In this document: one piece after another, positions 572 to 62,500 of the stretch | Numbering within the stretch: position 1 is the stretch's first letter | Layout: every line of letters begins with the position of its first letter | NCBI GenBank assembly: GCA_965235115.1 | Contig: OZ249436.1 | Location: forward strand, 1,490,001 to 1,554,000 | DNA length: 64,000 nt | Direction of reading: 5' to 3' | From: Laetmonice hystrix | Taxonomy: Eukaryota | Translations under genes and position numbers: made by a program | The notes under the pieces: model-generated | What the model was told of the DNA's origin: nothing | Databases searched by the model: none | What the model saw: only the letters and a program-made list of their open reading frames with translations

Positions 572-3500
572 GGCTGAGACAGAGACTCTTACCAGCAGCA
601 GACAATAAACCATGGCAGGGTGTATACAAATTTATAATAGAAGGGTGAGGTAGGGCTGAGACAGAGTCACTCTAACCAGCATACAATAAACCATGGCAGG
701 GTGTATACAAATTTATAATAGAAGGGCGAGGTAGGGCTGAGACAGAGTCACTCTAACCAGCATACAATAAACCATAGCAGGGTGTATACAAATTTATAGC
801 AGGTCGAGGTAGGGCTGAGACAGACTCTAACCAGCATACAATAAACCATGGCAGGGTGTATACAATAGAAGGGCGAGGTAGGGCTGAGACAGAGTCACTC
901 TAACCAGCATACAATAAACCATGGCAGGGTGTATACAATAGAAGGTCGAGGTAGGGATGAGACAGAGTCACTCTAACCAGCATACAATAAACCATGGCAG
1001 GGTGTATACAATAGAAGGGTGAGGTAGGGCTGAGACAGAGTCACTCTAACCAGCATACAATAAACCATGGCAGGTTGTATACAATAGAAGGGTGAGGTAG
1101 GGCTGAGACAGAGTCACTCTAACCAGCATACAATAAACCATGGCAGGGTGTATACAATAGAAGGGCGAGGTAGGGCTGAGACAGAGTCACTCTAACCAGC
1201 ATACAATAAACCATGGCAGGGTGTATACAATAGAAGGGCGAGGTAGGGCTGAGACAGAGTCACTCTAACCAGCATACAATAAACCATGACAAGTTGTATA
1301 CAATAGAAGGGTGAGGTAGGGCTGAGACAGAGTCACTCTAACCACCAGCATACAATAAACCATGGCAAGGTGTATACAAATTTATAATAGAAGGGTGAGG
1401 TAGGGCTGAGACAGAGTCACTCTAACCAGCATACAATAAACCATGGCAAGGTGTATACAATAGAAGGGTGAGGTAGGGCTGAGACAGAGTCACTCTAACC
1501 AGCATACAATAAACCATGGCAAGTTGTATACAATAGAAGGTCGAGGTAGGGCTGAGACAGAGTCACTCTAACCAGCATACAATAAACCATGGCAGGGTGT
1601 ATACAAATTTATAATAGAAGGGTGAGGTAGGGCTGAGACAGAGTCACTCTAACCAGCATACAATAAACCATGGCAGGGTGTATACAAATTTATAATAGAA
1701 GGGTGAGGTAGGGCTGAGACAGAGTCACTCTAACCAGCATACAATAAACCATGGCAGGGTGTATACAAATTTATAATAGAAGGGCGAGGTAGGGCTGAGA
1801 CAGATTCACTCTAACCACCAGCATACAATAAACCATGGCAGGTTGTAGACAAATTTATAATAGAAGGGTGAGGTAGGGCTGAGACAGAGTCACTCTAACC
1901 ACCAGCATACAATAAACCATGGCAGGGTGTATACAAATTTATAATAGAAGGGTGAGGTAGGGCTGAGACAGAGTCACTTTAACCACCAGCATACAATAAA
2001 CCATGGCAGGTTGTGGACAAATTTATAATAGAAGGGTGAGGTAGGGCTGAGACAGAGTCACTCTAACCAGCATACAATAAACCATGGCAGGGTGTATACA
2101 AATTTATAATAGAAGGGCGAGGTAGGGCTGAGACAGAGTCACTCTAACCACCAGCATACAATAAACCATGGCAGGTTGTAGACAAATTTATAATAGAAGG
2201 GCGAGGTAGGGCTGAGACAGAGTCACTCTAACCACCAGCATACAATAAACCATGGCAGGTTGTAGACAAATTTATAATAGAAGGGCGAGGTAGGGCTGAG
2301 ACAGAGTCACTCTAACCAGCATACAATAAACCATGGCAGGGTGTATACAAATTTATAATAGAAGGGTGAGGTAGGGCTGAGACAGACTCACTCTAACCAG
2401 CATACAATAAACCATGGCAGGGTGTATACAAATTTATAATAGAAGGGTGAGGTAGGGCTGAGACAGAGTCACTCTAACCACCAGCATACAAGAAACCATG
2501 GCAGGGTGTATACAATAGAAGGGCGAGGTAGGGCTGAGACAGAGTCACTCTAACCAGCATACAATAAACCATGGCAAGTTGTATACAATAGAAGGGTGAG
2601 GTAGGGCTGAGACAGAGTCACTCTAACCACCAGCATACAATAAACCATGGCAGGGTGTATACAAATTTATAATAGAAGGGCGAGGTAGGGCTGAGACAGA
2701 GTCACTCTAACCAGCATACAATAAACCATGGCAGGGTGTATGCAAATTTATAATAGAAGGGTGAGGTAGGGCTGAGACAGAGTCACTCTAACCAGCATAC
2801 AATAAACCATGGCAGGGTGTATACAAATTTATAATAGAAGGGTGAGGTAGGGCTGAGACAGAGTCACTCTAACCAGCATACAATAAACCATGGCAGGGTG
2901 TATACAAATTTATAATAGAAGGGCGAGGTAGGGCTGAGACAGAGTCACTCTAACCACCAGCATACAATAAACCATGGCAGGGTGTATACAATAGAAGGGC
3001 GAGGTAGGGCTGAGACAGTCACTCTAACCACCAGCATACAATAAACCATGGCAGGGTGTATACAAATTTATAATAGAAGGGTGAGGTAGGGCTGAGACAG
3101 AGTCACTCTAACCAGCAGACAATAAACCATGGCAGGGTGTATACAAATTTATAATAGAAGGGTGAGGTAGGGCTGAGACAGAGTCACTCTAACCAGCATA
3201 CAATAAACCATGGCAGGGTGTATACAAATTTATAATAGAAGGGTGAGGTAGGGCTGAGACAGAGTCACTCTAACCAGCATACAATAAACCATGGCAGGGT
3301 GTATACAAATTTATAATAGAAGGGTGAGGTAGGGCTGAGACAGAGTCACTCTAACCAGCATACAATAAACCATGGCAGGGTGTATACAAATTTATAATAG
3401 AAGGGCGAGGTAGGGCTGAGACAGAGTCACTCTAACCAGCATACAATAAACCATAGCAGGGTGTATACAAATTTATAGCAGGTCGAGGTAGGGCTGAGAC

Positions 3501-5745
3501 AGACTCTAACCAGCATACAATAAACCATGGCAGGGTGTATACAATAGAAGGGCGAGGTAGGGCTGAGACAGAGTCACTCTAACCAGCATACAATAAACCA
3601 TGGCAGGGTGTATACAATAGAAGGTCGAGGTAGGGATGAGACAGAGTCACTCTAACCAGCATACAATAAACCATGGCAGGGTGTATACAATAGAAGGGTG
3701 AGGTAGGGCTGAGACAGAGTCACTCTAACCAGCATACAATAAACCATGGCAGGTTGTATACAATAGAAGGGCGAGGTAGGGCTGAGACAGAGTCACTCTA
3801 ACCAGCATACAATAAACCATGGCAGGGTGTATACAATAGAAGGGTGAGGTAGGGCTGAGACAGAGTCACTCTAACCAGCATACAATAAACCATGGCAGGG
3901 TGTATACAATAGAAGGGCGAGGTAGGGCTGAGACAGAGTCACTCTAACCAGCATACAATAAACCATGGCAGGGTGTATACAATAGAAGGGCGAGGTAGGG
4001 CTGAGACAGAGTCACTCTAACCAGCATACAATAAACCATGGCAGGGTGTATACAATAGAAGGGTGAGGTAGGGCTGAGACAGAGTCACTCTAACCAGCAT
4101 ACAATAAACCATGGCAGGGTGTATACAATAGAAGGGTGAGGTAGGGCTGAGACAGAGTCACTCTAACCAGCATACAATAAACCATGGCAGGTTGTATACA
4201 ATAGAAGGGCGAGGTAGGGCTGAGACAGAGTCACTCTAACCAGCATACAATAAACCATGGCAGGTTGTATACAATAGAAGGGCGAGGTAGGGCTGAGACA
4301 GAGTCACTCTAACCAGCATACAATAAACCATGGCAGGTTGTATACAATAGAAGGGCGAGGTAGGGCTGAGACAGAGTCACTCTAACCAGCATACAATAAA
4401 CCATGGCAGGTTGTATACAATAGAAGGGCGAGGTAGGGCTGAGACAGAGTCACTCTAACCAGCATACAATAAACCATGGCAGGGTGTATACAAATTTATA
4501 ATAGAAGGGCGAGGTAGGGCTGAGACAGAGTCACTCTAACCAGCATACAATAAACCATGGCAGGGTGTATACAATAGAAGGGTGAGGTAGGGCTGAGACA
4601 GAGTCACTCTAACCAGCATACAATAAACCATGGCAGGTTGTATACAATAGAAGGGCGAGGTAGGGCTGAGACAGAGTCACTCTAACCAGCATACAATAAA
4701 CCATGGCAGGTTGTATACAATAGAAGGGCGAGGTAGGGCTGAGACAGAGTCACTCTAACCAGCATACAATAAACCATGGCAGGGTGTATACAATAGAAGG
4801 GCGAGGTAGGGCTGAGACAGAGTCACTCTAACCAGCATACAATAAACCATGGCAGGGTGTATACAATAGAAGGGTGAGGTAGGGCTGAGACAGAGTCACT
4901 CTAACCAGCATACAATAAACCATGGCAGGTTGTATACAATAGAAGGGCGAGGTAGGGCTGAGACAGAGTCACTCTAACCAGCATACAATAAACCATGGCA
5001 GGTTGTATACAATAGAAGGGCGAGGTAGGGCTGAGACAGAGTCACTCTAACCAGCATACAATAAACCATGGCAGGTTGTATACAATAGAAGGGTGAGGTA
5101 GGGCTGAGACAGAGTCACTCTAACCAGCATACAATAAACCATGGCAGGGTGTATACAATAGAAGGGTGAGGTAGGGCTGAGACAGAGTCACTCTAACCAG
5201 CATACAATAAACCATGGCAGGGTGTATACAATAGAAGGGTGAGGTAGGGCTGAGACAGAGTCACTCTAACCAGCATACAATAAACCATGGCAGGGTGTAT
5301 ACAATAGAAGGGCGAGGTAGGGCTGAGACAGAGTCACTCTAACCAGCATACAATAAACCATGGCAGGGTGTATACAATAGAAGGGCGAGGTAGGGCTGAG
5401 ACAGAGTCACTCTAACCAGCAGACAATAAACCATGGCAGGGTGTATACAATAGAAGGGTGAGGTAGGGCTGAGACAGAGTCACTCTAACCAGCAGACAAT
5501 AAACCATGGCAGGGTGTATACAATAGAAGGGTGAGGTAGGGCTGAGACAGAGTCACTCTAACCAGCATACAATAAACCATGGCAGGGTGTATACAATAGA
5601 AGGGCGAGGTAGGGCTGAGACAGAGTCACTCTAACCAGCATACAATAAACCATGGCAGGGTGTATACAATAGAAGGGCGAGGTAGGCCTGAGACAGAGTC
5701 ACTCTAACCAGCATACAATAAACCATGGCAGGGTGTATACAAAAT
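572..5745. repeat. 73/82/85-bp minisatellite, roughly 65-70 copies
   Basis: GGCTGAGACAGAGTCACTCTAACCAGCATACAATAAACCATGGCAGGGTGTATAC(AAATTTAT)AATAGAAGGGYGAGGTAG. Confidence 0.98.
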
Positions 5746-6500: not shown

Positions 6501-8436
6501 GTTGAGTGGACACGGGCGAGTCCCAACGACGACCACCACCACAGAAGTGGTGGCAACCTGTATTGGGATCGCTCGTGTCGGTATTGGCAGACAGCCTCGG
6601 CTCACGTCGGCTGTCTACGTCTACCAATACCGCCACTCGCTTGTACACCTATCAACCTCGGTGGACATCAACACTGGGGGTTACACACTCTTGTTTCGGC
6701 CCACCTCGGTATGATGTGACACATCGGTTGACACCTGGGTTGACACCATCTTCATTGATCATTGGCACCACCATGAAAAGGTGGTGGTCACACTGGTCAC
6801 GGTACTTGACTTTCTATGGCCGGTCGGGGCCACTCGGACGAGTCCCAAGATAAAAATATGTTCAACTGGACCAACGAACCCAGCGTCATTTAGGGGTGTT
6901 CGCCATTCATTTCTAAAATTGCCAACGTGATGACTAATTGAGATAGACCACGGCCACCCCTCCTGTCTCCATGCAGGTTTACACCTGGTGTCTTCACCGT
7001 CGGTGTATAACCTGCATGTAGCCATTCGTGGGCCGTGGACTGTCCCTCACGTAACCATTCGTGGGCCGTGGACTGTCCCTCACAGAAACTGAATGACGAC
7101 TGCGGTTACGTCATTACCGTGCGGTCTGACTCATCAATAAGTGTGTCCAGGCGTTTTCTAGGATTCCCCTTGAACCCTTACCCCGTTTTTTTCTTCAAAT
7201 ATCTGGACATGCCCTTTTATTTACGCTTGAAAAGAAACATTCCAAATTTGCGTGTCGCAAACCACAGTGGCATTCCGAACAAAAGACCGTCCGTTGTGGG
7301 GTTTATTTTGTCATCTTTCTTTCCTGCACACCATCAATGACGTATGTATCTGTCTCACTGTATACATTTCCATGTCGATAAATAAAATGTTCAATCTTAC
7401 TACACTAATTCGTCCTCTTCTTCCCAGTTATAAAAACAAGTCTCCAGCCATTAATTACTGTCTCCAAAGTTTATTTCACTTTTTTCTTCTTTCTTACAAT
7501 GACAGAGTGAGGTAACATTTGGCACCTTACCAGAGAATTTCCCTTCGATATACGAGTTAACAAGATGAGGGCTGTGTCCAGGGATTGGTGCGGGGGGGGG
7601 GGGGTTAGTGGATGGATCCAAGTGTTAGGACCTGTCTAACGCATTGTAACCACTGTACAGATGGCACCCGGGGGGCCGGGGGGGGGGGGGGTTAGTGGAT
7701 GGATCCAAGTGTTAGGACCTGTCTAACGCATTGTAACATTGTACAGATGGCGGCCGGGGGGGGGGGTGTTACAGACACCCAAAAAACCCCCTGGGCACTG
7801 CCGTGAAGATAAACGTAATGGTTCTAATGTACCCCCGGTAACTTGTACTTTTAACCACAGAACAGACAGCTGTCGATTCCCAGGTTTAAAATGGGAAGAC
7901 CTCTACATCGTAAAAAGATACTTATGTACACAGAAAGATAAACCAGAAACGAACCTTTCATTAGTTTCTGCCAATCCGTCCAGCCATCTTGTAGACGGAA
8001 GGTTGTGCGCTTTTATTAACATGATCATGTACAGAATGCCACACCTGTGTAAACAGGGAAACAGGTTTCCTAAACCTTGTTCACATTAACTGGCACATAA
8101 AAACGCACGGTTTCAAACAGGATCAGAAACCATGAAATAAGGTTTGTTTCTTCTTCATTCTCTGCTTACTTTTTTATGTACCTTGTATACACTACATGTA
8201 GACAAAGGCGCTATCACGACGGAATATCACAGCTTCATACCAAACTCCGCTTCTGACATAAAACTGATAGAAAATGACTCGGCCTATATTTGTTAATCTA
8301 TACCATGGAGTGTTACCCCGGTACGTCTGTATTTAATGTTCCTGAGCAAAGTCTGAATTTGTTATCAGCCTCAGCCAACCGTCGTGGTCGCCCAAAGACT
8401 GGATCACAATGTACGTGCCTTGCATGAAGGGACGAA

Positions 8437-8535
8437 CAATACACGTTATCTGCCTACAGTACCTATGCTACAATACACGTTATCTGCCTACAGTACCTAT
8501 GCTACAATACACGTTATCTGCCTACAGTACCTATG
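8437..8535. repeat. 34-bp repeat, 3 copies, immediately after the renalase stop codon
   Basis: AATACACGTTATCTGCCTACAGTACCTATGCTAC. Confidence 0.9.
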
Positions 8536-8542
8536 GATTATA

Positions 8543-13370
<4,828 letters not shown>

Positions 13371-13515
13371 GCCAGCACGAGAAAGCATACTTAAATAGGT
13401 CTGGACACTACTGTATAATACCTCCTGCAGAAGGTGAGTACGGATGTGTAGATCTCGCCCACCCAGGCTTTATAAGCGGCAGTGAAACGGTTTCCAACAT
13501 GTTATGCCGATAAGG

Positions 13516-13582
13516 CGATAGGTGGCGCGATTTTGCACGAGATTGGATGGGAGATTCACCATTCACGAAAGGTGGCGCCACT
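13516..13582 (+). promoter_or_regulatory. Two CTCF-like motifs upstream of renalase
   Basis: CGATAGGTGGCGCGA and CGAAAGGTGGCGCCACT. Confidence 0.35.
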
Positions 13583-13616
13583 GCATGAAAGCAATGTTTT
13601 GCCCTTTCAGGATCAA

Positions 13617-13934
13617 TGGGCGGACCATATGATATGAATTGGGAGGGGTAGGCCTAACAACACGTTAGCGTCAAGCAGATCTACGTTGCTATATACTAGC
13701 CTATTACATAAAAATAATTTGTTTTATAGATGTATGAAACAAACGTCTAACTGTTATGTAAAAAAATATAGTAGACTCTATAGAGTATAACGTGTTAGAC
13801 CTAATCAAAATGGGTGGGGGCAAAAAAAAAAGAGGTTTGCTCATAAAGAAACCCCACATTGCTGGCACGGCCCATAGACCGCTCAACATGCAGGGCCCTA
13901 GTGCCCCCCCTCTTCATATCAAATGGTCCGCCCA
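13617..13934. mobile_element. MITE with 22-bp TIR
   Basis: TGGGCGGACCATATGATATGAA ... TTCATATCAAATGGTCCGCCCA (1 mismatch); TSD not clear. Confidence 0.7.
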
Positions 13935-14561
13935 AAGCTAACTTCTGGTTTGTCATCTGACTTTGTCCCCGTGCATGAAGCCGCAGCAGGCACAACCATA
14001 CCAATACAGACTGACAGTTGCCGTCAACCACTGGAAGACGGGAGCAACGTGAAGTAGTATTGTAATCTTGTATTTCTCAGGTTAGTATAGCCTGTATAAA
14101 TGACATGACATTGCAAATCATGTCTGCAATACTACAATTACGTAAACGTTACCGTTGTGGGTGTGGCGTCCACCCGGCCATATATATATACGCGGCTTAT
14201 CGCGGAAAGTAATCTACACAGAAAAAAATAGAGTCAGAACGTCACAAGGAGGTGACATAGCACCTATTTATAACACTTAATCGAGCACTTGACTTTACCT
14301 GCTTACGTCGACATCGGTAGAAAAGGTGATACCATCTAGATTATAGATCTGTATGTATCTGACTTGGGATAAGAGAATAACTAGAACTAGTACTTGTAGT
14401 AGAAGTCTAACTGCCTGCATAGCCACAGCCTGCCCAAGGTGGTACTTTTCACCGGGACTACCATGTAATGACCAGTAGTTTTGACTTTCTATCGCCTGAC
14501 GCCCAGCTACTGAATTCTCCAGTTGGGCTACTGGGTAAATGTTCAGTTTAGCCTTACTTTA

Positions 14562-14982
14562 AGCCGGTTACACATATACCGACCTGACCGCCCGACCCCC
14601 GACTGACCGACCCGACAAGGTCGGGTCGGTCAAGATTGTTTTGCGACAGGAGTGTTCAGATATCACATCTGACGTCAACATTTGATAGTGATAGAAATCA
14701 TCAAAGTTGGCTTTTTTAGTCGGCTGAAAATACATTCCACAACCATTCCATCTGGTTGCAATCTAGTACCTGACACCGTGCACATATTCCGTTCGCCACC
14801 CGAACGTCCGACTTAGTCAGCCAAAAAGTCTGACATGTCAGACTTTGCCCGACCACCGATTCTCCGACCTGACTGCCCTTTCTGTGACCCAATCGGGTCA
14901 AAATGTATTGCACATATTATACTGACCAACCGACCCGATCCTCCCTGATCAGGCGGTGGGGTCAGGATACGTGCAACCGGCT
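14562..14982. mobile_element. PIF/Harbinger-type MITE, TTA TSD
   Basis: TTA|AGCCGGTTACACATAT ... ATACGTGCAACCGGCT|TTA, with internal CCGAC/GTCGG motifs. Confidence 0.75.
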
Positions 14983-15229
14983 TTAGCCCTATCAGAATAC
15001 AATGGGCTAGTGCGTGGATTCTCTGGCCTCAGGCCTACTGCAGACTAAAGAGCGGCGATGTTGCTAAAAACCTGTACCGACACAGGTGGTTCCTGGTCAT
15101 TAGTCCCTGGTCGTCCTTGGTAGTCCACAGTGAAAGGTGGTACCCCTCCTCACACTTTATCACATACACTGGGCTGAAGTGGGACGAGCCAGGTTACTGT
15201 AGAGACTAGAGAACTATAAATGAATCGTC

Positions 15230-16223: not shown

Positions 16224-18125
16224 AAAGAGGATGAAGGTAGACTGTTAGTGTTAGATTAATAAACCTTTGTAATTTCGGAATTGAAATTAATGTTAAACAG
16301 ATGTATGTATGCAGCTGTTCACAATAGAAATTGATGAAATGGTCCTATGGCAGTAATAAATGTGCCCTTCCCAACCTGGCATTGACACAACTTCTGACGA
16401 TTTCGAGTGAATTAGTAGAGCTCTTCGACCAGGGTATAAATTATCCATGAATTTCTTTACCACCCGAAGCCTCGGATATTAAAGATAGTCTGTATAATGT
16501 ACAGTGTATAATGGCAAATGAAGTACATGTATCTAATGTACTTGTCCATTGTTTGACAGCTGAATTTGCAAGCCTACATAGCTATATGACATAAGATGCA
16601 ATTGGTTCACGTTAAATGAATAGGCAGTATATACTGTAGGCCTACGTACAGCCAATGTTGACAGTTTTCCTATATTTCTCCCAAATGCTTTCAACATCAA
16701 GCAGAAACGCTATCATAGGTAATACCTGGCTTTTAGCGAAGAAAAGAATGATAATCTGGACATATTAACATGGATTCGTCCGTCGTGCACCGTAAATCTG
16801 TTCTTGCCCATTAAGACATGCTGATACTATAGAGAGCTGGTTGTTAGAGGGTTGGTACTTGTTCTCTTGAGCACAGATATGGTAAATTTGACACATTTTT
16901 TGAGACCCACCCATATTCACAGCAGAGTGACTGAGCCCTGAAACAAGTGATTTTTAACATCTAGTGCAGTTGTGAAGAAGAATGAATGAGCTTTCCACTG
17001 ATATATGATATGATATAACCAGGCCACAAATAACCGATATAACTGACTAACAATTCAAGTTTCCAAACCTTTTTTGAGGATTTGGAGTTGCATAGCTTTG
17101 ACCAACAGAGCAGGTTGTAAATAGATAAATTTGGAAGACTTATTATTAGGTATACCGTTTTGGAAACCTTTTGTAGCTGGCTGGCATACGAAGAGCCGTC
17201 AGTGTCAGAAATGCCAACCACCAGCTTTATATTCAACCTTTTGAACCATTCACTGGTAGTTATAAACCTCTTACTGTAATAACCTCATGGAGGTAACCAG
17301 ATGGAACCATACAAAACAATGCTCAGCTCACACTGATGGAGGATAAAGCTAGGCATCTATAGGTCCGTATACCTCATTAATACCTATTAATACAGGATTT
17401 CATGATGTTCTATTACTACAAATGCCTAGACCAAGAAGTGAGCCTTTTAAAAAAATGTAATAGTCGCATTATTTGACACAATGGACCTGTATTATGGAAT
17501 GATTTACCTGTATATATGAGAACGTTGAGAAGTAAGACATAAAACAGAACTTAAAAAATATTATAACATTAACAATGTGTTTTTGAATGAAAGCAGTCAG
17601 GATGGTTGATGTATTTATTATATATTGTCCCAGATATTGATTATGTAGGTGTATCCATAGTGTGTATTTCCATCATCTATAGATGCATAAAAATATCCAC
17701 GTTTTTCACATCATTTATTCTAGGTCAGTCGCTAGGACAGCAGTGATGTGGAAAAACACTATGTTTTTGACATCATAATATGGAATTCCCTAGATGTGTA
17801 CATGTAATGCATAAAACCTTACGCTTTATGCATACTTGCTATGCAAATACATGACAACTGAAATCCATTATGACCTTTTAATTATGCATACAGGGACTTA
17901 TGGAATATGGATGCCTCGCTTAAGTGTTGTAATGTAACTGAATGCAGTAGTAATGTTTTGAGAAAGGACAAATGTACAACTTCGTTTTTAAATTTAAAAA
18001 ACACCTCGCCAACACCTCGGCCTAAAACATGGACCAATATTTTTTCTTTTACTGTAGAATGAAAAATTGCAGCAGATAGCATTTAAATGTTCACGACAAT
18101 TTTTCTCTGTTGAAGGGAAGCCATC

Positions 18126-20114
18126 ATGTGGACAAGAAAGCTGAGGGTAGCAGCTGGTGTTGTGGCCAGGTATCGCAGTCAGTCAAGTGTTACAGTCAGG
18201 CAGCCACGTTTAGCAGCAAGTTATGTATCAGTACAACACATTTCAACCAGTTCACGTCAGTGCAGTGCTGAAACACCTTCCAGAAAACCTGAAATATTGC
18301 GAGCTTTGTGGCCTCAAGCCACATTTAACATAGACAAAATGACTGGGCTGTTAGACCACGACAACCATGCCATGCGTAAAGAATTTCGCGCTTTCATGAG
18401 TGATCCGGTGATGACTCCTAAATACAATATCTCTTTGTCTGAGGAACGAGACATTGCATTGACAAGACTTAAACGCATCTGTGATGGCGGTTTCATCTCT
18501 GTTCTTGATTTTCGAAACAACCCCCTGAGGATATTTGCAGCGCATGAGTTGGCAAGTATCATTGATCCAGCAATGACCACCAAGATGACGGTGCAGTTCA
18601 ACTTGTTTGGTGGGACTGTCCTGAAACTTGGCACTGAGCGCCACCACGAGAAACTTTTGAAGGGTATTGACACACTGGATGATGTTGGATGTTTTGGATT
18701 AACAGAATTAGGCTATGGAAACAATGCAGTCGAGATGGAGACTACAGCTGTCTATGACAAGGATTCGCAAGAGTTCATCGTCAACACTCCGTCTGTGATA
18801 GCCCAGAAGTACTGGATCACAAATGGAGCAGTTCACGCCAAGCACTGCGTGGTATTTGCTCAGCTGATGGTTGCCGAGCAGAACCATGGAATCCACGGAA
18901 TCCTTGTGAGGATTCGAGATGATGACATGAAGACCATGCCAGGGGTGACCGTGGAGGACATGGGCTACAAGATGGGTCTGAACGGAGTCGACAACGCCAA
19001 GCTGAGCTTTGACAACATCAGGGTCCCAAGGGAGAACCTTCTCAACCGGTACTCGGATGTAAATGATGCCGGTGAATTTACAACATCCATCAAAAGTAAC
19101 AGGGCTCGCTTCCTGACGGTGGCAGACCAGTTACTGTCCGGAAGGATCTGCATTGCCAGTATGTCACAAGGTGGGGCTAAGGCATCGTTGGCCATTGCTA
19201 TTCGATACGCAGCATCAAGGTTGACGGTAGGACCAACTGGGAAGTCTGACACACCGATCATGAGTTACCAGCTCCAGCAACGAGCCCTACTGCCTCTTCT
19301 TGCGCGGACATATGCAATAAACTTTGGGTTAGATTATGTGAAGGATCGCTGGGCTTTTCAGGCTGAGGACGGATCAGGCCACCCAGAGGTGGTTACCATG
19401 TGCTGTGTTATCAAACCGCTTGCCTCTTGGAACCTAGAGGAGGTGGCAACAGTGTCCCGTGAGCGATGTGGAGGGCAGGGATACCTTTCCTGCAACCGTT
19501 TTGGTCATTTCCTCGGCTTAGCTCATGCTGCAATGACAGCTGAGGGTGACAACAGTGTCCTCATGCAAAAAGTGGCCAAGGAACGACTGGCAGTTTTCAG
19601 GCCAGCCGCTCCAAAAGATCCTCCCCCCGCTGACCTGCTCAGCTTGGATTATCTGCAGTATCTCCTCCAGAAGCGTGAAGATGGCCTCTTCATGGAGCTT
19701 GGGATGAAGATGAAGGCGGCAGGGAAGGAAGCCATGTTCGATACGTGGATGTATGACTGCAGTGATCTTGTTCAAGCTGCGGCTCGTTCCTTTGGTGAGC
19801 GACTCATCAGCGACCGGTGTACGGCTAACACAACCAACGCAGACGAGTCCCTGCAGCACGTTCTTCAACAACTTCACCGTCTCTACGCCGTCAGTATTGT
19901 GGAGCGCCACCTGGCGTGGTTCATACTCAATGGAATCGTCCCTACAAGTGTTGCTGCTCAGGTTGAAGACACTGCAGCCCAGTTGTGTAAGGACATTGCG
20001 CCCCAAGCCCTGAGTCTCACGGAAGCCTTTGATATCACAGAAAACATGCTGTCGGCGCCAATTGCTCTTGATTGGGTCAAGTACAATGAATATGACAACC
20101 AAGGCGAAGTATAA
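18126..20114 (+). CDS. Acyl-CoA oxidase family flavoprotein (ACOX/ACOXL-like), single coding exon
   Basis: 662-aa ORF with [41 protein letters not shown] and TAEGDN (catalytic Glu position). A splice acceptor TTTTCTCTGTTGAAG ends at 18115, just before GCCATC-ATG. Confidence 0.93.
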
Positions 20115-20960: not shown

Positions 20961-21774
20961 GGCGACCATGTTCCCCATTGTGGTACATGTATACAGATGT
21001 GCGCAGTTTAATGATCCCCCCCCCCCCTCCAATTCTGCCCCCTCCCTCGTCAAAATCTTCCAAGAGCCATGTTTGCATTTTGAGGATCCCATTCGTCTAC
21101 TATTTAGTGGATTTCGGCTATTTTTTCCTTCAGAAATCGTCATTTCTGAGATAAATGCAGATCCGTTGAGTGCCGGGTGCAAATATACTTTCAGCTATTT
21201 TTTTAATTGGCTGTAATACTTGGCATGTGCATTTTCTGAAGACTGAAGCTCCCCCCCATCCCTTGAAATAAGATGGTTAGAAGTGTAGACGTAAATTTAT
21301 GTAAAATGGTCACACTCATACTTGGATTAAGAGCCTCCCTCCTCTGCCTCCTACACTCGTGCTTTACCATTCATGTTGTGAAGTCTGTCTTGGCTGATGT
21401 ACGCCTTGTCTTCATCTATAGACTGAGTGATAGCATTGTCGAGCAATTTTTATGTTTTAGGTTCCTATATTTCAGAGAAATTCCTATAAACTACATGAAC
21501 TTTATTTTTGGAAAAATTCTTATGAAAACCAAACTTCAAATGACACATGAGGATTAAGTGAAAATTGCTCATATTTTGAAACACCAAACTCGGTTTAAAA
21601 AATTATGAAAATACATTTCTTCATTTAAACTTTTGTAATTCTATATATTTTTAATGAATTTTTCTATACATGTTTGCATTTTGATATTTTAAACACTCCA
21701 GTGTTCTCGACACACTGCTGATGTTTCTGGATTAAAATGTTTATGTTCCAGAAGACAATTAGGCCACTCGCATC

Positions 21775-22956
21775 ATGAGTGAAAAGCTAGTGGACGAGAG
21801 GCTAAACCAAGCAATGGCCTACCTCGATAGTCTAACCCCTGGCCAATACAGTCCTGACCGTGTGGAGATGATGCGAGAAATCATGCAGTTTCTGAAGACA
21901 CACGGGGAAGAACGCATGAGTCAAATGGAGAACACAACGAACGCCTTAACAGTAAGCCTAGACAAGGTAGACATGAACCATCTCCTTGCTGTTGCGGATG
22001 CCTCCCCGACTGCAAAAAGTTATCTTATGGCAGGATATTGTTTTATGCAGGCTAGGGATCTTTTGGAAGGACCTGACGTAGCTGAGCCTTACACTGATGT
22101 TCGTGGACTGCATCTGATCGCCAAGGGACTAACTCATGAGAATTCGATGTTGGGTTTTGTTGAATGGAATGTCCCACATATGCAACGTTTCCTAGAGACA
22201 CACATAAAATTATGTCCAAATGATTATGCAGCACGCCTTGTACGACACCGCTTTTATTTAGGTGTTATGAAAGATGAAGACAAAATACGAGATCTAGAAA
22301 TCCTGGCTCATGATATGGAGTTGGATCAGTATGAAGACCAAGTAGACTTTGAGCAGGGCATGATGATCACCGTGTACTGGCATGTAGCAGCCATTTATGC
22401 CTTGACTGACCAGCACCAGAGAGCCATCGATACCTTTCAGAAGTGCCTTAAGCTAAACCCCAACGACTACGAATCAATATATGCCATTGCTTCCAACCTA
22501 ATACGTCTTAATCACCAGAACTGTCTACACATGAAAGACCAAATGGCCTACTATGATCCCGTAATCTTAGAAGAATCTGGAGCATTGTGCAAGAAGTACC
22601 TTTCCCTGGCCCCAAAATGTGCCAAGAAAGTTCCAGCAGCTCTTTATCAGCTGGCAGCTATATCCCTTATAAGAAACCGAAGAAGGGAATTTCTCTCATA
22701 CTACGAGGATGCTGTTGAGCAGGAGGCCATAGAGATGCCCTATGAGAGATACGCGACAACATTTTGGAAAGACTGTGGGGTAATGGGTTACAAAAAGATT
22801 CGTAAAGAGATCTGTTTTAACCCAACCTGTCCGGAAGAGGAATCGGTATCCGTCAAAATGTGCGCAGGCTGCCATGAAGCGGTCTACTGTGGCAGGATGT
22901 GTCAAAGCCAGCACCGACGTGTACACAAGAAACAATGTAAGAAGGTCCAGCGGTAA
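21775..22956 (+). CDS. TPR-like helical repeat plus C-terminal zf-MYND protein, paralogue A
   Basis: 393-aa ORF. TPR-like segment AIDTFQKCLKLNPNDYESIY. MYND pattern CFNPTC..CAGC..YCGRMCQSQH..HKKQC. Acceptor TTATGTTCCAG about 24 nt upstream of the ATG. Confidence 0.85.
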   Translation: MSEKLVDERLNQAMAYLDSLTPGQYSPDRVEMMREIMQFLKTHGEERMSQMENTTNALTVSLDKVDMNHLLAVADASPTAKSYLMAGYCFMQARDLLEGPDVAEPYTDVRGLHLIAKGLTHENSMLGFVEWNVPHMQRFLETHIKLCPNDYAARLVRHRFYLGVMKDEDKIRDLEILAHDMELDQYEDQVDFEQGMMITVYWHVAAIYALTDQHQRAIDTFQKCLKLNPNDYESIYAIASNLIRLNHQNCLHMKDQMAYYDPVILEESGALCKKYLSLAPKCAKKVPAALYQLAAISLIRNRRREFLSYYEDAVEQEAIEMPYERYATTFWKDCGVMGYKKIRKEICFNPTCPEEESVSVKMCAGCHEAVYCGRMCQSQHRRVHKKQCKKVQR

Positions 22957-24782: not shown

Positions 24783-25310
24783 TTTACGTTAATTCATACG
24801 ATATTCTCGAATTTAATGGTGCTGATAATGTTTTAAACTATTCCAATACGAAAAAGAAAGTTGAAACAATATTTTAATCAGGTGCGTCACCTAGATGTTC
24901 CGTTTTTGCAGGCAGCAAAATGTAAATTTAATACGGTTATGTTTTGTCATTCAAAGAAGAGGCGTCTGAAACCCAACCGTGCCCAGCCAATTTGCCACGA
25001 ATGACATTTTCTATGTAAAATGACCCAAGACCCCTAGAGCCGATTTCAGCAGCATACCTCCCTGGTCCTTGATCTGTCCCCAAACACTGGCCTTCCTGGT
25101 CTGAGTCTTGACAAAAATAAATCGCCATAGGTCTCGAAGAGAATGATTGTGTTTTATCTGTGCCCTCTCGTTTCCTGTGCCACTGATTTAATGTGTTATA
25201 TGTTCTGTCTCGGCTGACGCTTGCCATCCCTTTGTCCAGAGACAGAGTAGTGCCGTTGATGTTCCTTGATTAAAATGGTCCTGTTTCAGAACAACCAGCA
25301 AGGCTGTACC

Positions 25311-26483
25311 ATGAGTGAGAGACCAGAGAACGAAGGGCTGAACCAAGCAATGGCTTACCTCAACACTCTAACTCCTGACAAATGTAGTCCCGACGTTGTC
25401 GATATGATGCGAGATACGGTGACGTTTCTGAAGACATCCAGTGAAAGACGCATGAATCAAATGGAGAACACAGTAAATACCCTCAGACTAAACACAGGGA
25501 CAGTAGACATGAACCATCTCCTTGCTGTTGCGGATGCCTCCCCGACTGCACAAAGCTATATCATGGCAGGATATTGTTTTATGCAGGCTAGGGATCTTTT
25601 GGATGGACCTGACGTAGCTGAGCCTTACACTGATGTTCGGGGACTGCATCTGATCGCCGAGGGACTAACTCATGAGAATTCGATGATGACTTTTGTTGAA
25701 TGGAATGTCCCACATATGCAACGTTTCCTAGAGACACACATAGAATTATGTCCAAATGATTATGCAGCACGCCTTGTACAACACCGCTTTCATTTAGGTG
25801 TTATGAAAGATGAAGAGAAAATACGAGATCTAGAAATGCTGGCTCATGATATGGAGTTGGATCAGTATGATAGCCAAGGAGACTTTGAGCAGGGCGTGAT
25901 GATCACCTTGTACACCTTCCTAGCGTTCATTTATACCATGACCGACCAGCACCAGAGAGCTATCAACACCTTTGAGAAGTGCCTCAAGCTAAACCCCAAT
26001 GACTATGACTCCATATACGGCATCACTTTCAACCTATGCATCTCAAAATATGAAGATGGTGATACACTTGCAGCCCGCTATGATCCCGCAAGCCTGGAAG
26101 AGTCTGAAGCATTGTGCAAGAAGTATCTTTCACTGGCTCCGAAGTGTGCTAAGAAATTCCCTGCGGTTCTTTATCAGCTGGCGTACATATGTATCTTAAA
26201 GAATAGAAGAAGGGAATACCTTTCATACTACGAGGATGCTGTCGAGCAGGAAGCCTTGGAGATGCCGTACAACCGAAAAGTAGAAACTGCGTTTAAAACA
26301 TATGGCACGTTGAGTTACAAAATGATTCGTAAAGAGATCTGTTTTAACCCAACCTGTCCGGAAGAGGAATCGGTGCCCGTCAAAATGTGCACGGGCTGCC
26401 ATGAAGCGGTCTACTGTGGCAGGACGTGTCAAAGCCAGCACCGACGTGTACACAAGAAACAGTGTAAGAAGGCCCAGCGGTAA
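25311..26483 (+). CDS. TPR-like helical repeat plus C-terminal zf-MYND protein, paralogue B
   Basis: Colinear with paralogue A. The true start is probably ACC-ATG at 25311 (MSERPEN), after acceptor CTGTTTCAG at 25289; the ORF-track start at 25266 lies in the upstream intron. Confidence 0.85.
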   Translation: MSERPENEGLNQAMAYLNTLTPDKCSPDVVDMMRDTVTFLKTSSERRMNQMENTVNTLRLNTGTVDMNHLLAVADASPTAQSYIMAGYCFMQARDLLDGPDVAEPYTDVRGLHLIAEGLTHENSMMTFVEWNVPHMQRFLETHIELCPNDYAARLVQHRFHLGVMKDEEKIRDLEMLAHDMELDQYDSQGDFEQGVMITLYTFLAFIYTMTDQHQRAINTFEKCLKLNPNDYDSIYGITFNLCISKYEDGDTLAARYDPASLEESEALCKKYLSLAPKCAKKFPAVLYQLAYICILKNRRREYLSYYEDAVEQEALEMPYNRKVETAFKTYGTLSYKMIRKEICFNPTCPEEESVPVKMCTGCHEAVYCGRTCQSQHRRVHKKQCKKAQR

Positions 26484-35231: not shown

Positions 35232-35232
35232 G

Positions 35233-46404: not shown

Positions 46405-49300
46405 CGACTCGGTATAGCCCCCCCCCCCTCCGCTCCAGTGGCACAACATCAGCCCTCACGCACACCCCAACCCCCACCCCACCCCAACCACAACCACGTA
46501 CAGCTGATTAATGACAGTATACAACATGTCAGACAGTATATAAACTGGTGATATTAACAACGGGCCTGGATCAGCCCGTCCCGCATACACTCAATCTCAC
46601 ACACTCACAGAGTGCCAAGTGGTGCACATACAGGAGGAATATAGGCTACATGATTTGATATTATATATGATATAGTGACGATTCCCTGGCGGAGTAGACA
46701 GGGAGACTGCATGTGCATCAATTGACATTACCCAGCGAGTCATACCAAGCCCTAGATTAACACCGTCATGTAGTGGTTGGCACCATTCTACACTATTTTA
46801 TTAACTTAAACAATATCCCCTTCCGTCCTCCACACAGATGGGGCTGTGTACTTTTTGTCTGTAGAGATCGAGGTACGTAGGAGAGGAAATTCCCGGCTAT
46901 CTTGGCAACCATCCTCTCAAAGGGATCATGCACCAGTCGTCAACAGTCGACTGGCGCGAAAATAAGGCCTTTCGTGAGAAATCGTCAAAAAAAGTTTATT
47001 TCTCTTGCCATTTTGTGATGAGATATTTTTTTCATGCCGTTTTGATGAGATATTTCCGTAAGACATTTTTCGTGATGGTTTGATAAGATATTTTATCATA
47101 ATGTTAGGCCAAAATGGCAACTGTCGTCCTTAAAATTACACTGTAAAACATAGGGGATGTAATGCACAAATTGTCATTCCTATAGTTCCTAAAAACCTTA
47201 TTCATAACAACTGACTGTAATTTTCTGGTCTCCATTTGTAAATCTGCATTACATGTTTGATTTAAAAAAAACGTACTTTACCAAGTGTACATTTGAGAAG
47301 GCCACAGAGGCGGATATTATTTAAGTATGGATTGTTTTTCTGATCAAGTATAATAACAACATCCTTCCCGCCTGGCCAGTAGACACGGAATCACTCACCC
47401 CTCCGTAGGATCCAAACATCACGTTAACCGGTTAAGGCGTCCAAGAAAATTCCGCCGTTTGCGCAACTTTGCCGGCTTTCCTTCTTTGATTTCATCTTCC
47501 ATTTTAACCAAACCGAAGTATTCGGCTGGGTTGTCTCGTGTGAGCGCGTCAATAATGTCAAATAACAAGTACAAGCACTGGAGATGGATGTACGGCCCGG
47601 ATGGGAACTCCAGCTTCATGCCGTCTGCCGTAATATACCACGGCCAAGAGGACACTGCCCCGACCCCGCCTCTACAGCCGCAACAGCCGTCGCCCAATGA
47701 AGTTAAGTAGAGCACCGTCCTCGTGTATAGCCCAGTCGTAATATACTTCACATGGAGCCGATGGCAACATTATTCCCGCACGTTGTGTGAGCTTGTGTGA
47801 GCTTGTGTATGCTCTGGGTAAACTACCAACACTTCTCGCTGTCGACCTTTCACATCTCGAGCCTTCGAGAGAGAAAACGACTCATTTGCATAGACACGTG
47901 GTCGGCCGATAGGAGCTCAAAAGTCCAGAGTTCATAATGTTGTACGTGTATTCCCGAGTATACGCCGACAGTTGGCCGTGATCAAACCACAGCTAAAAAA
48001 AAGTCAACAGTTCTAATAAACTTAGTGTACATGGTAGGTCTATACATTTACTAAGTTTCCAACTATATCGTTTGGGTGTTACATGTATGGGCTTATCCCC
48101 CGATCAAGGATCTCACTTTCATATTATTAAAACGTATTCTCACAATTAAGGGCGTATATACATATGTTTTGAGACCTCACCGCCTGAAATCTGCTGCCCC
48201 GGATGAGAATGACAATTATTTCCTGTAGTGTAATTAGGCAATCGACATGACACATCAGCGGAAGGGAATTCGACGTGACTGTCGTCTGTTTTTTTATGAC
48301 GTCATCCCCCCTGACACATTGACCTCTGTGGCACGGCGCCGCCTATCCCTATTTCCTGGCGATGACCACAAGCGAAGGTTCATTGTGTGTGGACATAACT
48401 CAGGTGTCTAGGTCGAATCGTTTCATGGTGACATCAGGTGTCATCAGGTGAGATAAAATTTGACAGCACTCATAATTTCTTATGATCTTGTCGCCACAGA
48501 CGTCCTCATAACTTTGGGGTCGTTCATGTCTCATCTTTTCCGCGCGCAGTAGAATATTTAATGGAGGTAACTCGACCTAACTGTTCATAATTAGTTTGAA
48601 ATCAGGATTAATATCTGGGTACAATTCTGAGTGGACCTAAATGTGTAATACACTTTTGTAGTTTGATGCAAGCGAATATATTAAGACATTGTTGGTGTTA
48701 ATGTGTGTGATCTGCGGAAGGGTGGTGGAAAACGGAGATTATGTCTAAATACTTGTTGTTTTCCACGGGCTCCATGCTCCCTTCAGCTAGGGTGGTGGCG
48801 GTGGTGAGGGGTGAGGGGGGAGGTAGCCTCGTGCGTGCTCACGACCAGGGAGGTCGGGGTGGGGGTGCGGTGACCTTCAGACGATCCTCTACATTATGGA
48901 CAGGACGTTTTGTAGACGACCTGTCGATCCTGGTGGCAGGTTGCCTCAAGTGGGCCACAATCAAAGCCGTGGGGGAGGGGCGGGGGGGGGGGGGGGTCGG
49001 TGCAGGGGGGGGGGGAGGGGCTGATTCACCTACCAGACCCTGACGTCAGGAATATCCTGTTTATGCCAGATAAACTCTGTACAGAGGCTTTGTCTAACAC
49101 AACCACAACCTGGTCGTCATGCCGGTGTAGAGAAGAAGAGAAAAACACGCCATGGTTCCCTTCTGTCACACACAGCAGTTGGTTACTTTCAATGTTAGGT
49201 AACCATGACAACCGCTATAGCTAGGTGACACCAAAGAACCGATCCTGCATGGGGCTCAAATAGAATCATACGATACCTTTTTATGTGACTTGTGTAAAGA

Positions 49301-53491: not shown

Positions 53492-53542
53492 ACAGCAGGT
53501 GGCGCCACAGTATGATTGTCGTGTATTTAGCGCCATCTGTCG
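53492..53542. promoter_or_regulatory. Convergent pair of CTCF-like motifs
   Basis: ACAGCAGGTGGCGCCAC on + and CGACAGATGGCGCTA on -; both fit the core AGRKGGCGC. Confidence 0.5.
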
Positions 53543-56582: not shown

Positions 56583-59500
56583 CTGAAAAATAAATGAGTT
56601 AAAACCATAAGACCATACAACAAAGATTTTGTACAGAGGTGAAAACGAGTTTTATAATGCCCTTTACCAATCCCACCGAACTACCGGCAGCTCCTCCCTA
56701 GGAACCAATATTACTTTGAAATACTCTTAATTAACTAGTCAAGACTTCGTTTAAAACCCTGTTTAAAAGCACTGGGACTGACGTGAGAATACTTGCCGAT
56801 CAGTGGAAGGGAATCCGATTCTGGCATGGTTTCGGCGATCGCCAATTGCAGCACATAGAGCGACAGGAAGACAGTCAGCCCGATACCAACCTTGTTTCCA
56901 TCGTCACACGGGAGGAAATAACTGAACAAAGTCAGGAAGCAGAGCACCAGGACGGGAGCTAACACCGTGTACGAGTAGTAGAGTGGTTTACGTCGGAAGT
57001 GAAGACGTAACGTAATCTGTGGAAACGTCCCGGCAAACACCTCGTACGACATCGTCTCTCGCGAGAGCGAGATGTTGATAAGTTGGTATTCATTGTTCGG
57101 TATATACTCCGACATTTCCACGTTTTCGATCTTTTTAACGAGGTCCAGTTGTTCACCGTCGTAGATCCAGGACCCGAAGCGGATGAAACAGCGCTGGTTG
57201 TCGAACGGGAAGTAGGTGACATCGACGGCACAGGAACTTTTGATCATAAGTGGGATAACCCACTCGACACGGCCGTCGTAATGTACAGTGGCGCGGCTGT
57301 CGTTTACCAACACAAAGCCGTCATCACCGTCGTCCGCGCTGGAACATAGAATATACTTTTTCATTTGCAGAACCAGTAAGGAACATTTTCACCTTGTGTG
57401 TTATCATTTGTACATCAGTAGTAAGAACAATCGTCCTTTAGTTGCCTCCTTGTGCCCGGCGGTTCGCCCTTCACTTCCTGAAGCTATACTTTAACCCTTA
57501 TCTCCGCCGGTCAAATTGGTATTTTGATTTTTGTTTTATTCATTGATTGTACAATTTTACTCGAAATTAATATTCGTATTGATGAGATAGAAGAGGCGAG
57601 GAACTGACTTGTTGAAGATATACAGATCGGGCACCCAGAGAGCGAATGAAGGCATGATCATCTGTTGTAAGCCATCGTATTCGGCCGGGTTCCATTGTAG
57701 AATCTCATTGTGCCATTCCTGCAATGATCAACGCCTAATATTGGAAACTACACCTGACTGCCAAATGACCCATTGACGGTCTCTGACTGCTGAATGACCC
57801 ATTGACGGTCACTGTGACTGCTGACTGCCCCATTGACGGTCACTCTGACTGCTGACTGACCCATTGACGGTCTCTCTGACTGCTGACTGCCCCATTGACG
57901 GTCACTCTGACTGCTGACTGACCCATTGACGGTCACACTGACTGCTGACTGCCCCATTGACGGTCACTGTGACTGCCCCATTGACGGTCACACTGACTGC
58001 TGACTGCCCCATTGACGGTCACTCTGACTGCTGACTGCCCCATTGACGGTCACTCTGACTGCTGACTGCCCCATTGACGGTCACTCTGACTGCTGACCGC
58101 CCCATTGACGGTCACTGTGACTGCCCCATTGACGGTCACTCTGACTGCTGACCGCCCCATTGACGGTCACTGTGACTGCCCCATTGACGGTCACACTGAC
58201 TGCTGACTGCCCCATTGACGGTCACTCTGACTGCTGACCGCCCCATTGACGGTCACTGTGACTGCCCCATTGACGGCCACTCTGACTGCTGAAGAAGATA
58301 TATCTTCTATCAGATGGAGTAAAATGATCGTGTTAAAAGTCCCAAGTAATTAAACATAATATTTCCCTATGCCATAAGTATAATGCTACGATCCCTATAG
58401 ATTCCCTATGAATGACATCTACGGTACGGAGCCAGTCAGCAACTGTTCTAATGGTTGGATGGGTTGTTATATATTACGAGGGAAATGAGGGAATGTCGAA
58501 CAAATTAACATATTTTGGGTTCATGGATTTGCCACCAGGGGCCGCCACATCCATTCACTACGCAAGGTGCTGCCAGACGACAAAGAGCCGCCTGACCTTG
58601 GAAAGTTATTGCTCTAACAGCTCGGCACCCTGGCGAAGGGCAGTTATTGCTATATCTTTAATTTGGGCGGCCAAAAAACGCTATTTCCCGTCATTTGGAG
58701 ATCAAGATTCTGAAGGTATTCATGAGAAGCTTGCCAAGTGGGTTTTGATGATTTTCTAGATTTGATTCAAGTTTCTCTCTGTTTTTTTGATCCCTTGGAG
58801 TTGAACTTCGATCGTTGAGGTCTACAAGAACATTTCCTCAGTAACAACATTGATAACGGTCATATAATAATTGGTCTCGTTCTGAGAGGTGGTAAAGATG
58901 ATTACCTCAAATATCCAGGCGTGTGTTATCAGCGTTTGATTCTTCTCGTCCTGTGGAATCAAGCAAATATTCAGAGATAAAACATGTCTCCTCTCCTGTG
59001 GAATCAAGCAAATATTCAGAGATAAAACATGTCTCCTCTCCTGTGGAATCAAGCAAATATTCAGAGATAAAACATGTCTCCTCTCCTGTGGAATCAGGAA
59101 AATATTCAGAGATAAAACATGTCTCCTTTCCTGTGGAATCAAACAATAAATATTCAGAGATAAAACATGTCTCCTCTCCTGTGGAATCAAGCAAATATTC
59201 AGAGATAAAACATGTCTCCTCTCCTGTGGAATCAAGCAAATATTCAGAGATAAAAGATGTCTCCTCTCCTGTGGAATCAAGCAAATATTCAGAGATAAAA
59301 CATGTCTCCTCTCCTGTGGAATCAGGAAAATATTCAGAGATAAAACATGTCTCCTCTCCTGTGGAATCAAGCAAATATTCAGAGATAAAACATGTCTCCT
59401 CTCCTGTGGAATCAAGCAAATATTCAGAGATAAAAGATGTCTCCTCTCCTGTGGAATCAAGCAAATATTCAGAGATAAAACATGTCTCCTCTCCTGTGGA

Positions 59501-62500
59501 ATCAGGAAAATATTCAGAGATAAAACATGTCTCCTCTCCTGTGGAATCAAGCAAATATTCAGAGATAAAACATGTCTCCTCTCCTGTGGAATCAAGCAAA
59601 TATTCAGAGATAAAAGATGTCTCCTCTCCTGTGGAATCAAGCAAATATTCAGAGATAAAACATGTCTCCTCTCCTGTGGAATCAGGAAAATATTCAGAGA
59701 TAAATCAGGTCTCCTCTCGGTACCAGTAGAACACGTCATGTATTCAGTATGTGAAGGTCAGGGCGTTCATTCTTTTACTAGCCTAGTCATGTTCTAAGGA
59801 AATGAAACACATCGCTGAGGAGGTCCAGCCCCCCTCCCAACCCCCCAACACCCGGTGGGCCCTCCGGATTCTGGTAAATTTAAGGGGGGGCAGTCAGGCC
59901 CGTAGCCACGGGGAGTGGGGTGGGGAACAGTCCCCCCGCTCCCTATTCTGTCGCCAACCGGAGCCGTGAATCGTGCACACGGGCCAAAAAAAAATCCTTT
60001 TAATTACTTTGCGCCCAATTTCCCCTCAATCGGTTTTAAACATCATAGAGGAGGGACATGATTATTATTATTATTCCTGCAATCTCTGCTAAGATCAAGA
60101 AGGTCTTTACTCACCAGATCCATTATTTGATGGAGTGACAGAGAGAAATTGACCTTCAAGGTGGTACTAGCGTTAAGTACCGGTCTGGTTCCGGGGTCAT
60201 AGTTCATGGTCAGGTCATCGAACAGCATCCTCTCCACACTGAGTCGTTCCTGCATATTCCAGCCACCTGAATACCACAATAACGTATCATTATTAAACCT
60301 CAGGTCATCAAACAGCATCCTCTCCACACTGAGTCGTTCCTGCATATTCCAGCCACCTGAATACCACAATAACGTATCATTATTAAACCTCAGGTCATCA
60401 AACAGCATCCTCTCCACACTGAGTCGTTCCTGCATATTCCAGCCACCTGAATACCACAATAACGTATCATTATTAAACCTCAGGTCATCAAACAGCATCC
60501 TCTCCACACTGAGTCGTTCCTGCATATTCCAACCACCTGAATACCACAATAACGTATCATTATTAAACCTCAGGTCATCAAACAGCATCCTCTCCACACT
60601 GAGTCGTTCCTGCATATTCCAGCCACCTGAATACCACAATACCAGCCACCTGAATACCACAATACCAGCCACCTGAATACCACAATACCAGCCACCTGAA
60701 TACCACAATACCAGCCACCTGAATACCATAATACCAGCCACCTGAATACCACAATACCAGCCCCCTTAATACCACAATACCAGCCACCTGAATACCACAA
60801 TACCAGCCACCTGAATACCACAATACCAGCCCCCTTAATACCACAATACCAGCCCCCTTAATACCACAATACCAGCCACCTGAATACCACAATACCAGCC
60901 ACCTTAATACCACAATACCAGCCACCTTAATACCACAATACCAGCCACCTGAATACCACAATACCAGCCACCTTAATACCACAATACCAGCCTCCTTAAT
61001 ACCACAATACCAGCCACCTTAATACCACAATACCAGCCACCTTAATACCACAATACCAGCCACCTTAATACCACAATACCAGCCACCTGAATACCACAAT
61101 ACCAGCCACCTTAATACCACAATACCAGCCACCTGAATACCACAATAACGTATCATTATTAAATCTTTCCCAAGTACCGACCTAAAACTTCTCAGAATAA
61201 ATGGATGCACACTGATCAGAATATATGCAAACAGAAAACCAAATCGTCTGCTCAGATTTTCAGAATTATCCCATTCACAGGACAGAATATCTCCCTTTTA
61301 TTGTGCGTGTGGGAAAATTGAGCTATTTAAAAATTTTCCTCCAGAATTCATCAACTCAAAGTAAATTGTTATTTTAAATTAAATTATTTTAAATTAAATT
61401 TAAATTTTCATTGTTTACGTTATAAAATCATACCACTAAAAAAAGTCACAAAATCTGGACTACTCAATCTTTCGCACGATATCACAATGCATGGTCTCCA
61501 GTCAGCCGAAAGATTTTGGTTATGGGTCCGTACCATCTTTGTGGGCAGTGGCGGCAGGTTGGCACAAACACCAAATCAGGGGAGATAAGTACAGATCTAT
61601 ACCTGGTCCAAGTCTGCATGCATCCCCTGACATTGATGAAGGCCGGCCCTCGACATTTTAAATTCTATATAAGGTGCTGTGATCGATCTCAGGGGAGGCG
61701 TGAAGTTTGATTGGTTCCTATTGTAGCGTAGTACACTCTGGTTAGTTCCAGTAAATTATTTATTATACTGTAGACCGTTCTGGCGCGATATCACACTGAC
61801 TTACACTGGGAGTTTTTATAGTATTCAAGTCATCCTTGTGTATAATAGTCCACCCATATATGGCCCACTCCCAACACATTTAGGTATCCTTCATGACTTC
61901 AGGAACCCCACCACCGCAGTCCATCCACTGGGGTGTGTTCGTCACCCCGTTATACCATACCGCCACCCCGCCCCGCCCCCCCACCCCACCTTTACCCACC
62001 CCAATATTAGCCGCCTCTGTGGGGTGTGTTCGTCACCCCCGTTATACCGCCACCCCACTCCCCACCCCACCTTTACCCACCCCAATATTAGCAGCCTCTG
62101 TGGGGTGTGTTCGTCACCCCGTTATACCCCCATACCGCCACCCCACTCCCCACCCCACCTTTACCCACCCCAATATTAGCCGCCTCTGTGGGGTGTGTTC
62201 GTCACCCCGTTATACCCCCATACCGCCACCCCACTCCCCGCCCCACCTTTACCCACCCCACTCCCCACCCCACCTTTACCCACCCCAATATTAGCCGCCT
62301 CTGTGGGGTGTGTTCGTCACCCCGTTATACCCCCATACCGCCACCCCACTCCCCACCCCACCTTTACCCACCCCAATATTAGCCGCCTCTGTGGGGTGTG
62401 TTCGTCACCCCGTTATACCCCCATACCGCCACCCCACTCCCCACCCCACCTTTACCCACCCCAATATTAGCAGCCTCTGTGGATGAGGAGCATTGGTACA

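Follow-up and report, generated by a model that had tools for sequence, protein, structure and literature searches.

In the genome assembly of the annelid Laetmonice hystrix (GCA_965235115.1), a stretch of 64,000 nucleotides (contig OZ249436.1, positions 1,490,001 to 1,554,000; hereafter the window) holds a renalase gene and a nicotinic acetylcholine receptor (nAChR) gene in which the units of several tandem arrays contain a splice site. The question is why repeats should lie across exon-intron junctions. The original prediction offered two answers: a general repeat-generating process whose products survive at junctions, or a preferential amplification of junctions. We found that the answer lies between them. 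In our reading, to which we give a probability of about 0.6, these arrays are minisatellites of the mirage type known from lancelets, that is, local duplications that are tolerated, with a modest bias towards exon edges that is not specific to splice signals.

The window is part of a 627-Mb assembly in 35 contigs, and tandem arrays are very dense in it (81 rows called by Tandem Repeats Finder, TRF). Of the five arrays within its two gene bodies, three span a junction, where 1.1 would be expected (P = 0.06). Because this is not enough by itself, we assembled an outside sample from loci surrounding nAChR, myosin-head and SNF-transporter exons, excluding the window's own gene. It comprises 77 regions (268 kb) with 207 acceptors, 207 donors and 62 arrays at a TRF score of at least 100. 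We predicted splice sites by means of a self-trained coding model and site matrices and checked them by eye near arrays. For the null, we reduced each array to a single unit and gave it a random position outside exon interiors, in pooled, within-region and own-intron versions. Before counting, we dropped L026 (the window's gene; L numbers are locus labels), L052 (identical to L051), ten exon calls that were spurious or duplicated, a pseudo-exon made of a repeat copy, two arrays lying within exons, and periods under 10. At L084 and L043 the site had been called at a spare copy and was shifted by hand to the true one, and an exon of L068 was restored. Two further cases cross junctions with no TRF call and were left out of the counts: L074 (56 bp, 84%) and L001, where a 642-bp tandem duplication (L001:419-1718), 99.2% identical, lies across the acceptor of an nAChR exon 5 and may be real or an assembly artefact.

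In the outside sample, 12 arrays span a splice junction, compared with 4.5 expected under the pooled null (P = 0.001), 5.6 within region (P = 0.007) and 7.2 within the own intron (P = 0.03). This is an excess of 1.7-2.7x over random placement, and chance accounts for roughly 40-60% of the spanning arrays. Neither of the two answers thus holds alone, and the comparison with random placement, which the original prediction had itself proposed, returned a modest excess. The excess stays at scores of at least 50 or at least 200, at copy numbers of at least 2.5 or at least 3.5, and with a 10-nt margin. Its direction is the same in all three gene families, none of them significant singly for spanning alone. 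The outside rate is 12 of 414 sites, or 2.9% (about 1.7-5%, hand-computed Wilson interval). At this rate, 3 of 22 sites in the window has P = 0.025, as expected for a window chosen for the feature; 22 was the number of confident splice sites first reported, and our count is 21.

Arrays that end 0-29 nt from a junction without containing it are also in excess (9 observed; 3.6, 4.2 and 5.5 expected under the same three nulls; P = 0.009, 0.02 and 0.08). Farther away the excess disappears: 6 arrays fall at 30-99 nt, where 7.3 are expected, and 6 at 100-299 nt, below the 12.8 expected. Spanning and abutting arrays together number 21 against 12.7 under the strictest null (P = 0.002, with the 30-nt edge set post hoc). 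The excess looks like an exon-edge bias and not like splice-site targeting: it extends to the abutting arrays, and one array begins 8 nt past the renalase stop codon, so the bias does not appear to concern the splice signal.

Within the window, we confirmed all four arrays that had been described, with splice-site-containing units at the renalase exon-6 donor and at two nAChR acceptors (Table 1). They do not represent four separate events; there are three, because the 23-bp array is nested in one copy of the 90-bp array.

Table 1. Positions in the window of the arrays discussed here and of the exons that they adjoin.
Feature	Positions	Strand	Remarks
66/73-bp array	572..5745	plus	One locus only; no splice site shown within
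34-bp array, 2.9 copies	8436..8535	minus	First base 8 nt past renalase stop codon; touches coding edge, not splice site
Renalase exons	13370-13253, 12762-12657, 12496-12351, 11922-11758, 11069-10896, 10784-10606, 8701-8543	minus	
Renalase exon 6	10606..10784	minus	Intact spliced frame; neighbouring exons match human renalase
Renalase last exon	8543..8701	minus	Matches human renalase; closes frame
Renalase donor-spanning array	9074..10661	minus	100-bp unit, 88-bp variants
nAChR exons	60266-60115, 58950-58906, 57718-57609, 57338-56798, and from 56582	minus	
nAChR exon 2, 152 nt	60115..60266	minus	Functional acceptor 60266; Pfam Neur_chan_LBD positions 2-40
Exon-2 acceptor-spanning array, 90-bp unit	60210..60641	minus	33 nt intron + 57 nt exon
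23-bp array	60619..61165 (about)	minus	15 nt intron + 8 nt exon; nested in most upstream 90-bp copy
nAChR exon 3, 45 nt	58906..58950	minus	Functional acceptor 58950
Exon-3 acceptor-spanning array, 45-bp unit (one 48)	58941..59718	minus	16 spare acceptors
31-bp array	57754..58292	minus	Ends 35 nt upstream of nAChR exon-4 acceptor; near, non-spanning

The seven renalase exons join into an intact frame of 348 residues with six introns, one of which holds the array, and exons 5 and 7 match human renalase (3QJ4) with E values of 4.6e-17 and 7.7e-8. The array unit consists of about 56 nt of exon end and 44 nt of intron start. We counted 17 donor copies, one fewer than the approximately 18 reported before; 16 are spare, and GT is intact in all. 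The donor CAG|GTATGG after position 10606 is the copy nearest to exon 6 and presumably the one in use, and any spare donor, if used, would lead to a stop at residue 308. Summed depth over the unit was 1229, 1351 and 206 in three DNA runs kept as contigs, and in the same runs the unique bins at 10796-11111 had depths of 39-41, 42-45 and 19-26. The resulting ratio of roughly 8-30x shows presence in read-derived data, not copy number; the check covers the renalase array only, and the three runs may be the assembly's own source. A genome search, which skips very common words, found no second locus for the unit. The high depth and the confinement to one locus argue against an assembly artefact for this array. 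At 10480-15200, these three runs, which are filed as one sample, show allele differences among themselves, and several intron segments there are high-copy dispersed repeats.

The nAChR exon 5 matches annelid proteins best (Paralvinella 59%, Ridgeia 58%, and Capitella 57%); exon 1 of this gene was not located. At exon 2, the units read CAG|GT, and the spare acceptors of the 90-bp array (60356, 60446, 60536, and 60626) are all in frame and stop-free (4/4). The 23-bp array holds 23 AG copies, many of them altered from CAG to AAG, and the two arrays together present 26 spare AGs. Site 61132 carries the full 33-nt intron context of the 90-bp unit, and site 60626 continues into the remainder of that unit. 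The 90-bp unit was amplified first and the 23-bp sub-unit later, inside the most upstream copy, in one nested event. At exon 3, every spare acceptor of the 45-bp array is in frame and stop-free (16/16); the exon part of the unit is only about 9 nt and has diverged.

Elsewhere in this gene, the exon-5 donor at 56797 (minus strand) appears to be GC (G|GCAAGT); the frame is broken if a GT farther along is taken instead. Paralogs share the 110-nt exon 4 and the start of exon 5. One paralog (L091, G000:C18:23686950-23688250, minus strand) has four diverged copies of the 110-nt exon 4, separated by spacers of about 50, 37 and 39 nt, each with its own acceptor and donor (3/4 translated). They look like a set of mutually exclusive exons; being diverged exon copies, these four tandem matches on C18 were rejected as a minisatellite.

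Outside the window, donors (L042, L067, L069, L077, L084, and L085) and acceptors (L010, L030, L037, L043, L049, and L061) are equally affected, with six spanning arrays each, and the window adds one donor and two acceptors. Spanning units measure 29-120 bp outside and 23-120 bp with the window included. Of the spare copies, 66 of 70 outside and all 58 in the window retain an intact GT or AG. Since so many remain intact outside, and the scores of 47 of the 70 lie no more than 1 log-odds unit from that of the true site, there is no visible purging of the spares. The functional copy is unlike the spares in the 45-bp array, L030, L037, L042 and L043, but not in others. Displaced sister arrays were seen at L069 and L083, and the L083 copy has its AG changed to AA. 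Inspection by eye found no shared motif at the breakpoints.

The 90- and 45-bp units had suggested in-frame selection on acceptor arrays. This was rejected: unit length is a multiple of three in only 3 of the 12 outside spanning arrays, compared with 18 of 41 distant ones, and for this reason we put the in-frame state of the window nAChR arrays down to chance, as the probable explanation. Spanning arrays are also more homogeneous than distant arrays (median match 96% vs. 92%, P = 0.017), likewise among units of at least 29 bp. This fits a bias at birth better than longer survival, but purging of older arrays would look alike. Longer survival near exons is disfavoured by this homogeneity together with the flat 30-99 nt bin.

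Structures of this kind are already known. In lancelets, the published accounts of Adh3, the globins BflGb6 and BflGb9, troponin C and PGBD5 include mirages (PMC3087553, PMC3902484), described as minisatellite-like tandem copies of exon-intron boundaries at 5' and 3' edges, with units of about 10-160 bp, AG/GT kept in most copies, and a proposed role as an intron-gain route (PMC3087553). These accounts report normal splicing and length polymorphism (PMC3087553, PMC3902484). The arrays described here share four defining traits: a tandem unit across the exon-intron boundary, minisatellite size, occurrence at both boundaries, and retention of AG/GT. What they add to the lancelet cases is an annelid host, a rate per junction and a chance-placement test.

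For donors, the closest human parallel is the 37-bp variable number tandem repeat in F7 intron 7, whose first unit spans the exon-intron boundary and is followed by identical spare donors, as in our donor arrays; according to the same account, splicing takes the most upstream donor, through oriented scanning (PMC1557585). It lists 6-16, CBS IVS13, LAMIN B2 and PDGF as similar cases, with the next copies also used in two genes (PMC1557585). However, F7 is mammalian and concerns the donor side only, whereas half of the arrays here are at acceptors, where the last copy must win and 5'-to-3' scanning does not account for the choice. CBS 844ins68 is likewise a duplicated intron-exon boundary with two acceptors (PMC11017215); it doubles an acceptor as our arrays multiply one, but has two copies and no amplified array. 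The Rogers model, as cited in PMC3087553, derives intron gain from tandem duplication of AG|GT. The raw material is the same, as in the nAChR exon-2 units, but we saw no intron gain in the window: no new intron bounded by duplicated AG|GT lies inside a former exon, the renalase frame closes with its six introns, the nAChR has its exon 4 and exon-5 start in common with paralogs, and the arrays sit within introns of intact genes. Since the phenomenon has been named in lancelets and the mechanism of donor choice tested in human F7, it is not new. A limited literature search found no published enrichment test over chance and no report from annelids, and the test against chance placement is our modest quantitative addition.

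How might such arrays arise? A local stretch of 20-120 bp would be duplicated in tandem and then expanded, perhaps by slippage or unequal exchange, a process that probably occurs throughout this repeat-rich genome; the locality is observed, and the mechanism is our suggestion. Where the seed straddles an exon edge, one terminal copy would stay continuous with the unique exon and the spares would fall into the intron, which is the geometry seen here. The spliceosome would then take the exon-nearest copy, at donors the 5'-most one by oriented scanning as in F7, and at acceptors the 3'-most one, presumably by exon definition. Because the exon-nearest copy would be used, the spares would be nearly neutral and keep their GT or AG. 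About half of the spanning arrays may reflect random placement and the remainder an approximately two-fold exon-edge bias, a statistic that we measured and whose cause we can only guess. Our preferred guess is that recombination or repair tracts begin in the conserved exon and, at the intron edge where homology falls off, slip or change template. A stronger version, which we hold tentatively and at somewhat less than even odds, is that a mutational process favours conserved exon edges, whether spliced or unspliced, as starting points for tandem duplications and has left intact spare sites in rows at about 3% of junctions, half of them acceptors, and probably thousands genome-wide.

The most serious competitor is a neutral by-product, in which arrays are born uniformly in a repeat-dense genome and the apparent excess is a product of limited sampling, local differences in rate and repeat-derived DNA that escaped detection deep within introns. 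Chance does explain a large share of the 12 arrays, the window falls short of significance, and our mask for interspersed repeats saw only very common families (about 3% of distal intron). Yet the spanning excess has P of at most 0.05 under three nulls and with all score and copy-number filters, and it is limited to under 30 nt, while dilution by transposons should raise the 30-99 nt bin too; we thus regard uniform birth as rather unlikely. The sharp peak at the junction and the donor/acceptor symmetry would suit splicing-coupled mutagenesis as well, with R-loops, spliceosome-linked breaks or RNA-templated repair seeding duplications specifically at splice sites, and the abutting arrays could be spanning arrays that have decayed, as the change of AG to AA at L083 illustrates. 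But most of the nine abutting arrays hold no trace of a splice dinucleotide, one array (n = 1) touches the renalase stop codon, and the units include intron sequence, which excludes mature mRNA as the template; this coupling seems improbable.

An assembly artefact is the least credible explanation: the near-identical duplicate at L001 could be one, but array copies carry nested variants and indels, and the renalase depth speaks against it. Scarcely more probable is a function, with spares kept to tune splicing or to add in-frame repeats of 15 or 30 residues to the nAChR extracellular domain. Both window nAChR acceptor arrays are in frame and stop-free, but the outside sample has no in-frame bias, overall or among acceptor arrays (1/6, with mixed spacing), each spare renalase donor truncates the protein, and the spanning arrays are 76-99% homogeneous.

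Several points weigh against our own reading of tolerated local duplications with an edge bias. The outside sample is 0.04% of the genome and draws on three gene families, and its splice sites are predicted, not annotated. L037 was assigned as spanning by hand, and with L037 taken at its TRF end there are 11 spanning arrays (P = 0.017 within region). The 30-nt bin edge was picked after the data were seen, and the abutting excess is non-significant under the strictest null. Among the 14 arrays in fully seen introns, 5 span a junction against 3.3 expected, a small excess. Breakpoint microhomology is 0-3 nt in clean cases, but indels make most cases, and the position of the junction within the unit, too noisy to read.

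If the two-fold exon-edge bias holds genome-wide, it would reveal the birthplaces of small duplications and matter for the idea that introns can be gained by tandem duplication. Moreover, the acceptor arrays, with up to 26 spare AGs, some of them in frame, offer a natural test that sets exon definition against scanning at 3' splice sites, beyond the reach of the human donor cases. An edge-seeding process, if true, would provide a natural library on last-acceptor choice and a measurable source of new introns and exons.

The array at 572-5745 had been taken as a fifth case, repeating the donor of a candidate exon. We rejected it as a donor array because all three frames of that exon are interrupted by stop codons and because donor-like sites are common: of 41 arrays distant from exons, 23 have one that scores at least 3 on one strand. 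The array follows, on the 3' side, an open frame whose last codons read RKDEL-stop, near position 145. This frame had no match in Pfam, PDB, atlas or homologue searches and is not confirmed as a gene; we presumed a likeness to MZB1/canopy, for which the searches gave no confirmation. Each array unit contains AATAAA (67 copies), and the first of these is the first AATAAA after the frame. The array could be an amplified polyadenylation signal; we estimate that chance would give such a coincidence with a probability of a few percent. A separate array of about 88 bp (L092:1-300) precedes the RKDEL-ending exon, has the donor-like word CAG|GTAGGC in each unit and is possibly another donor array.

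Other parts of the window hold an acyl-CoA oxidase without introns and two similar frames of about 400 residues, also intronless (18114-20111, 21763-22953, and 25260-26480). The top named matches of the oxidase include brachiopod and mollusc proteins, and the first of the two frames, the one scanned, has TPR/MYND-finger matches. Among the TRF rows of the window, none lies at the edges of these three frames. The region 31478-54490 consists of dense private minisatellites of up to 5.2 kb with no recognised gene, and the open reading frame at 47422-47769 has no Pfam match. Finally, G000:C4:25253376-25298170 contains nine near-identical kinase exon matches spaced at about 5.5 kb, which make up a large tandem segmental array.

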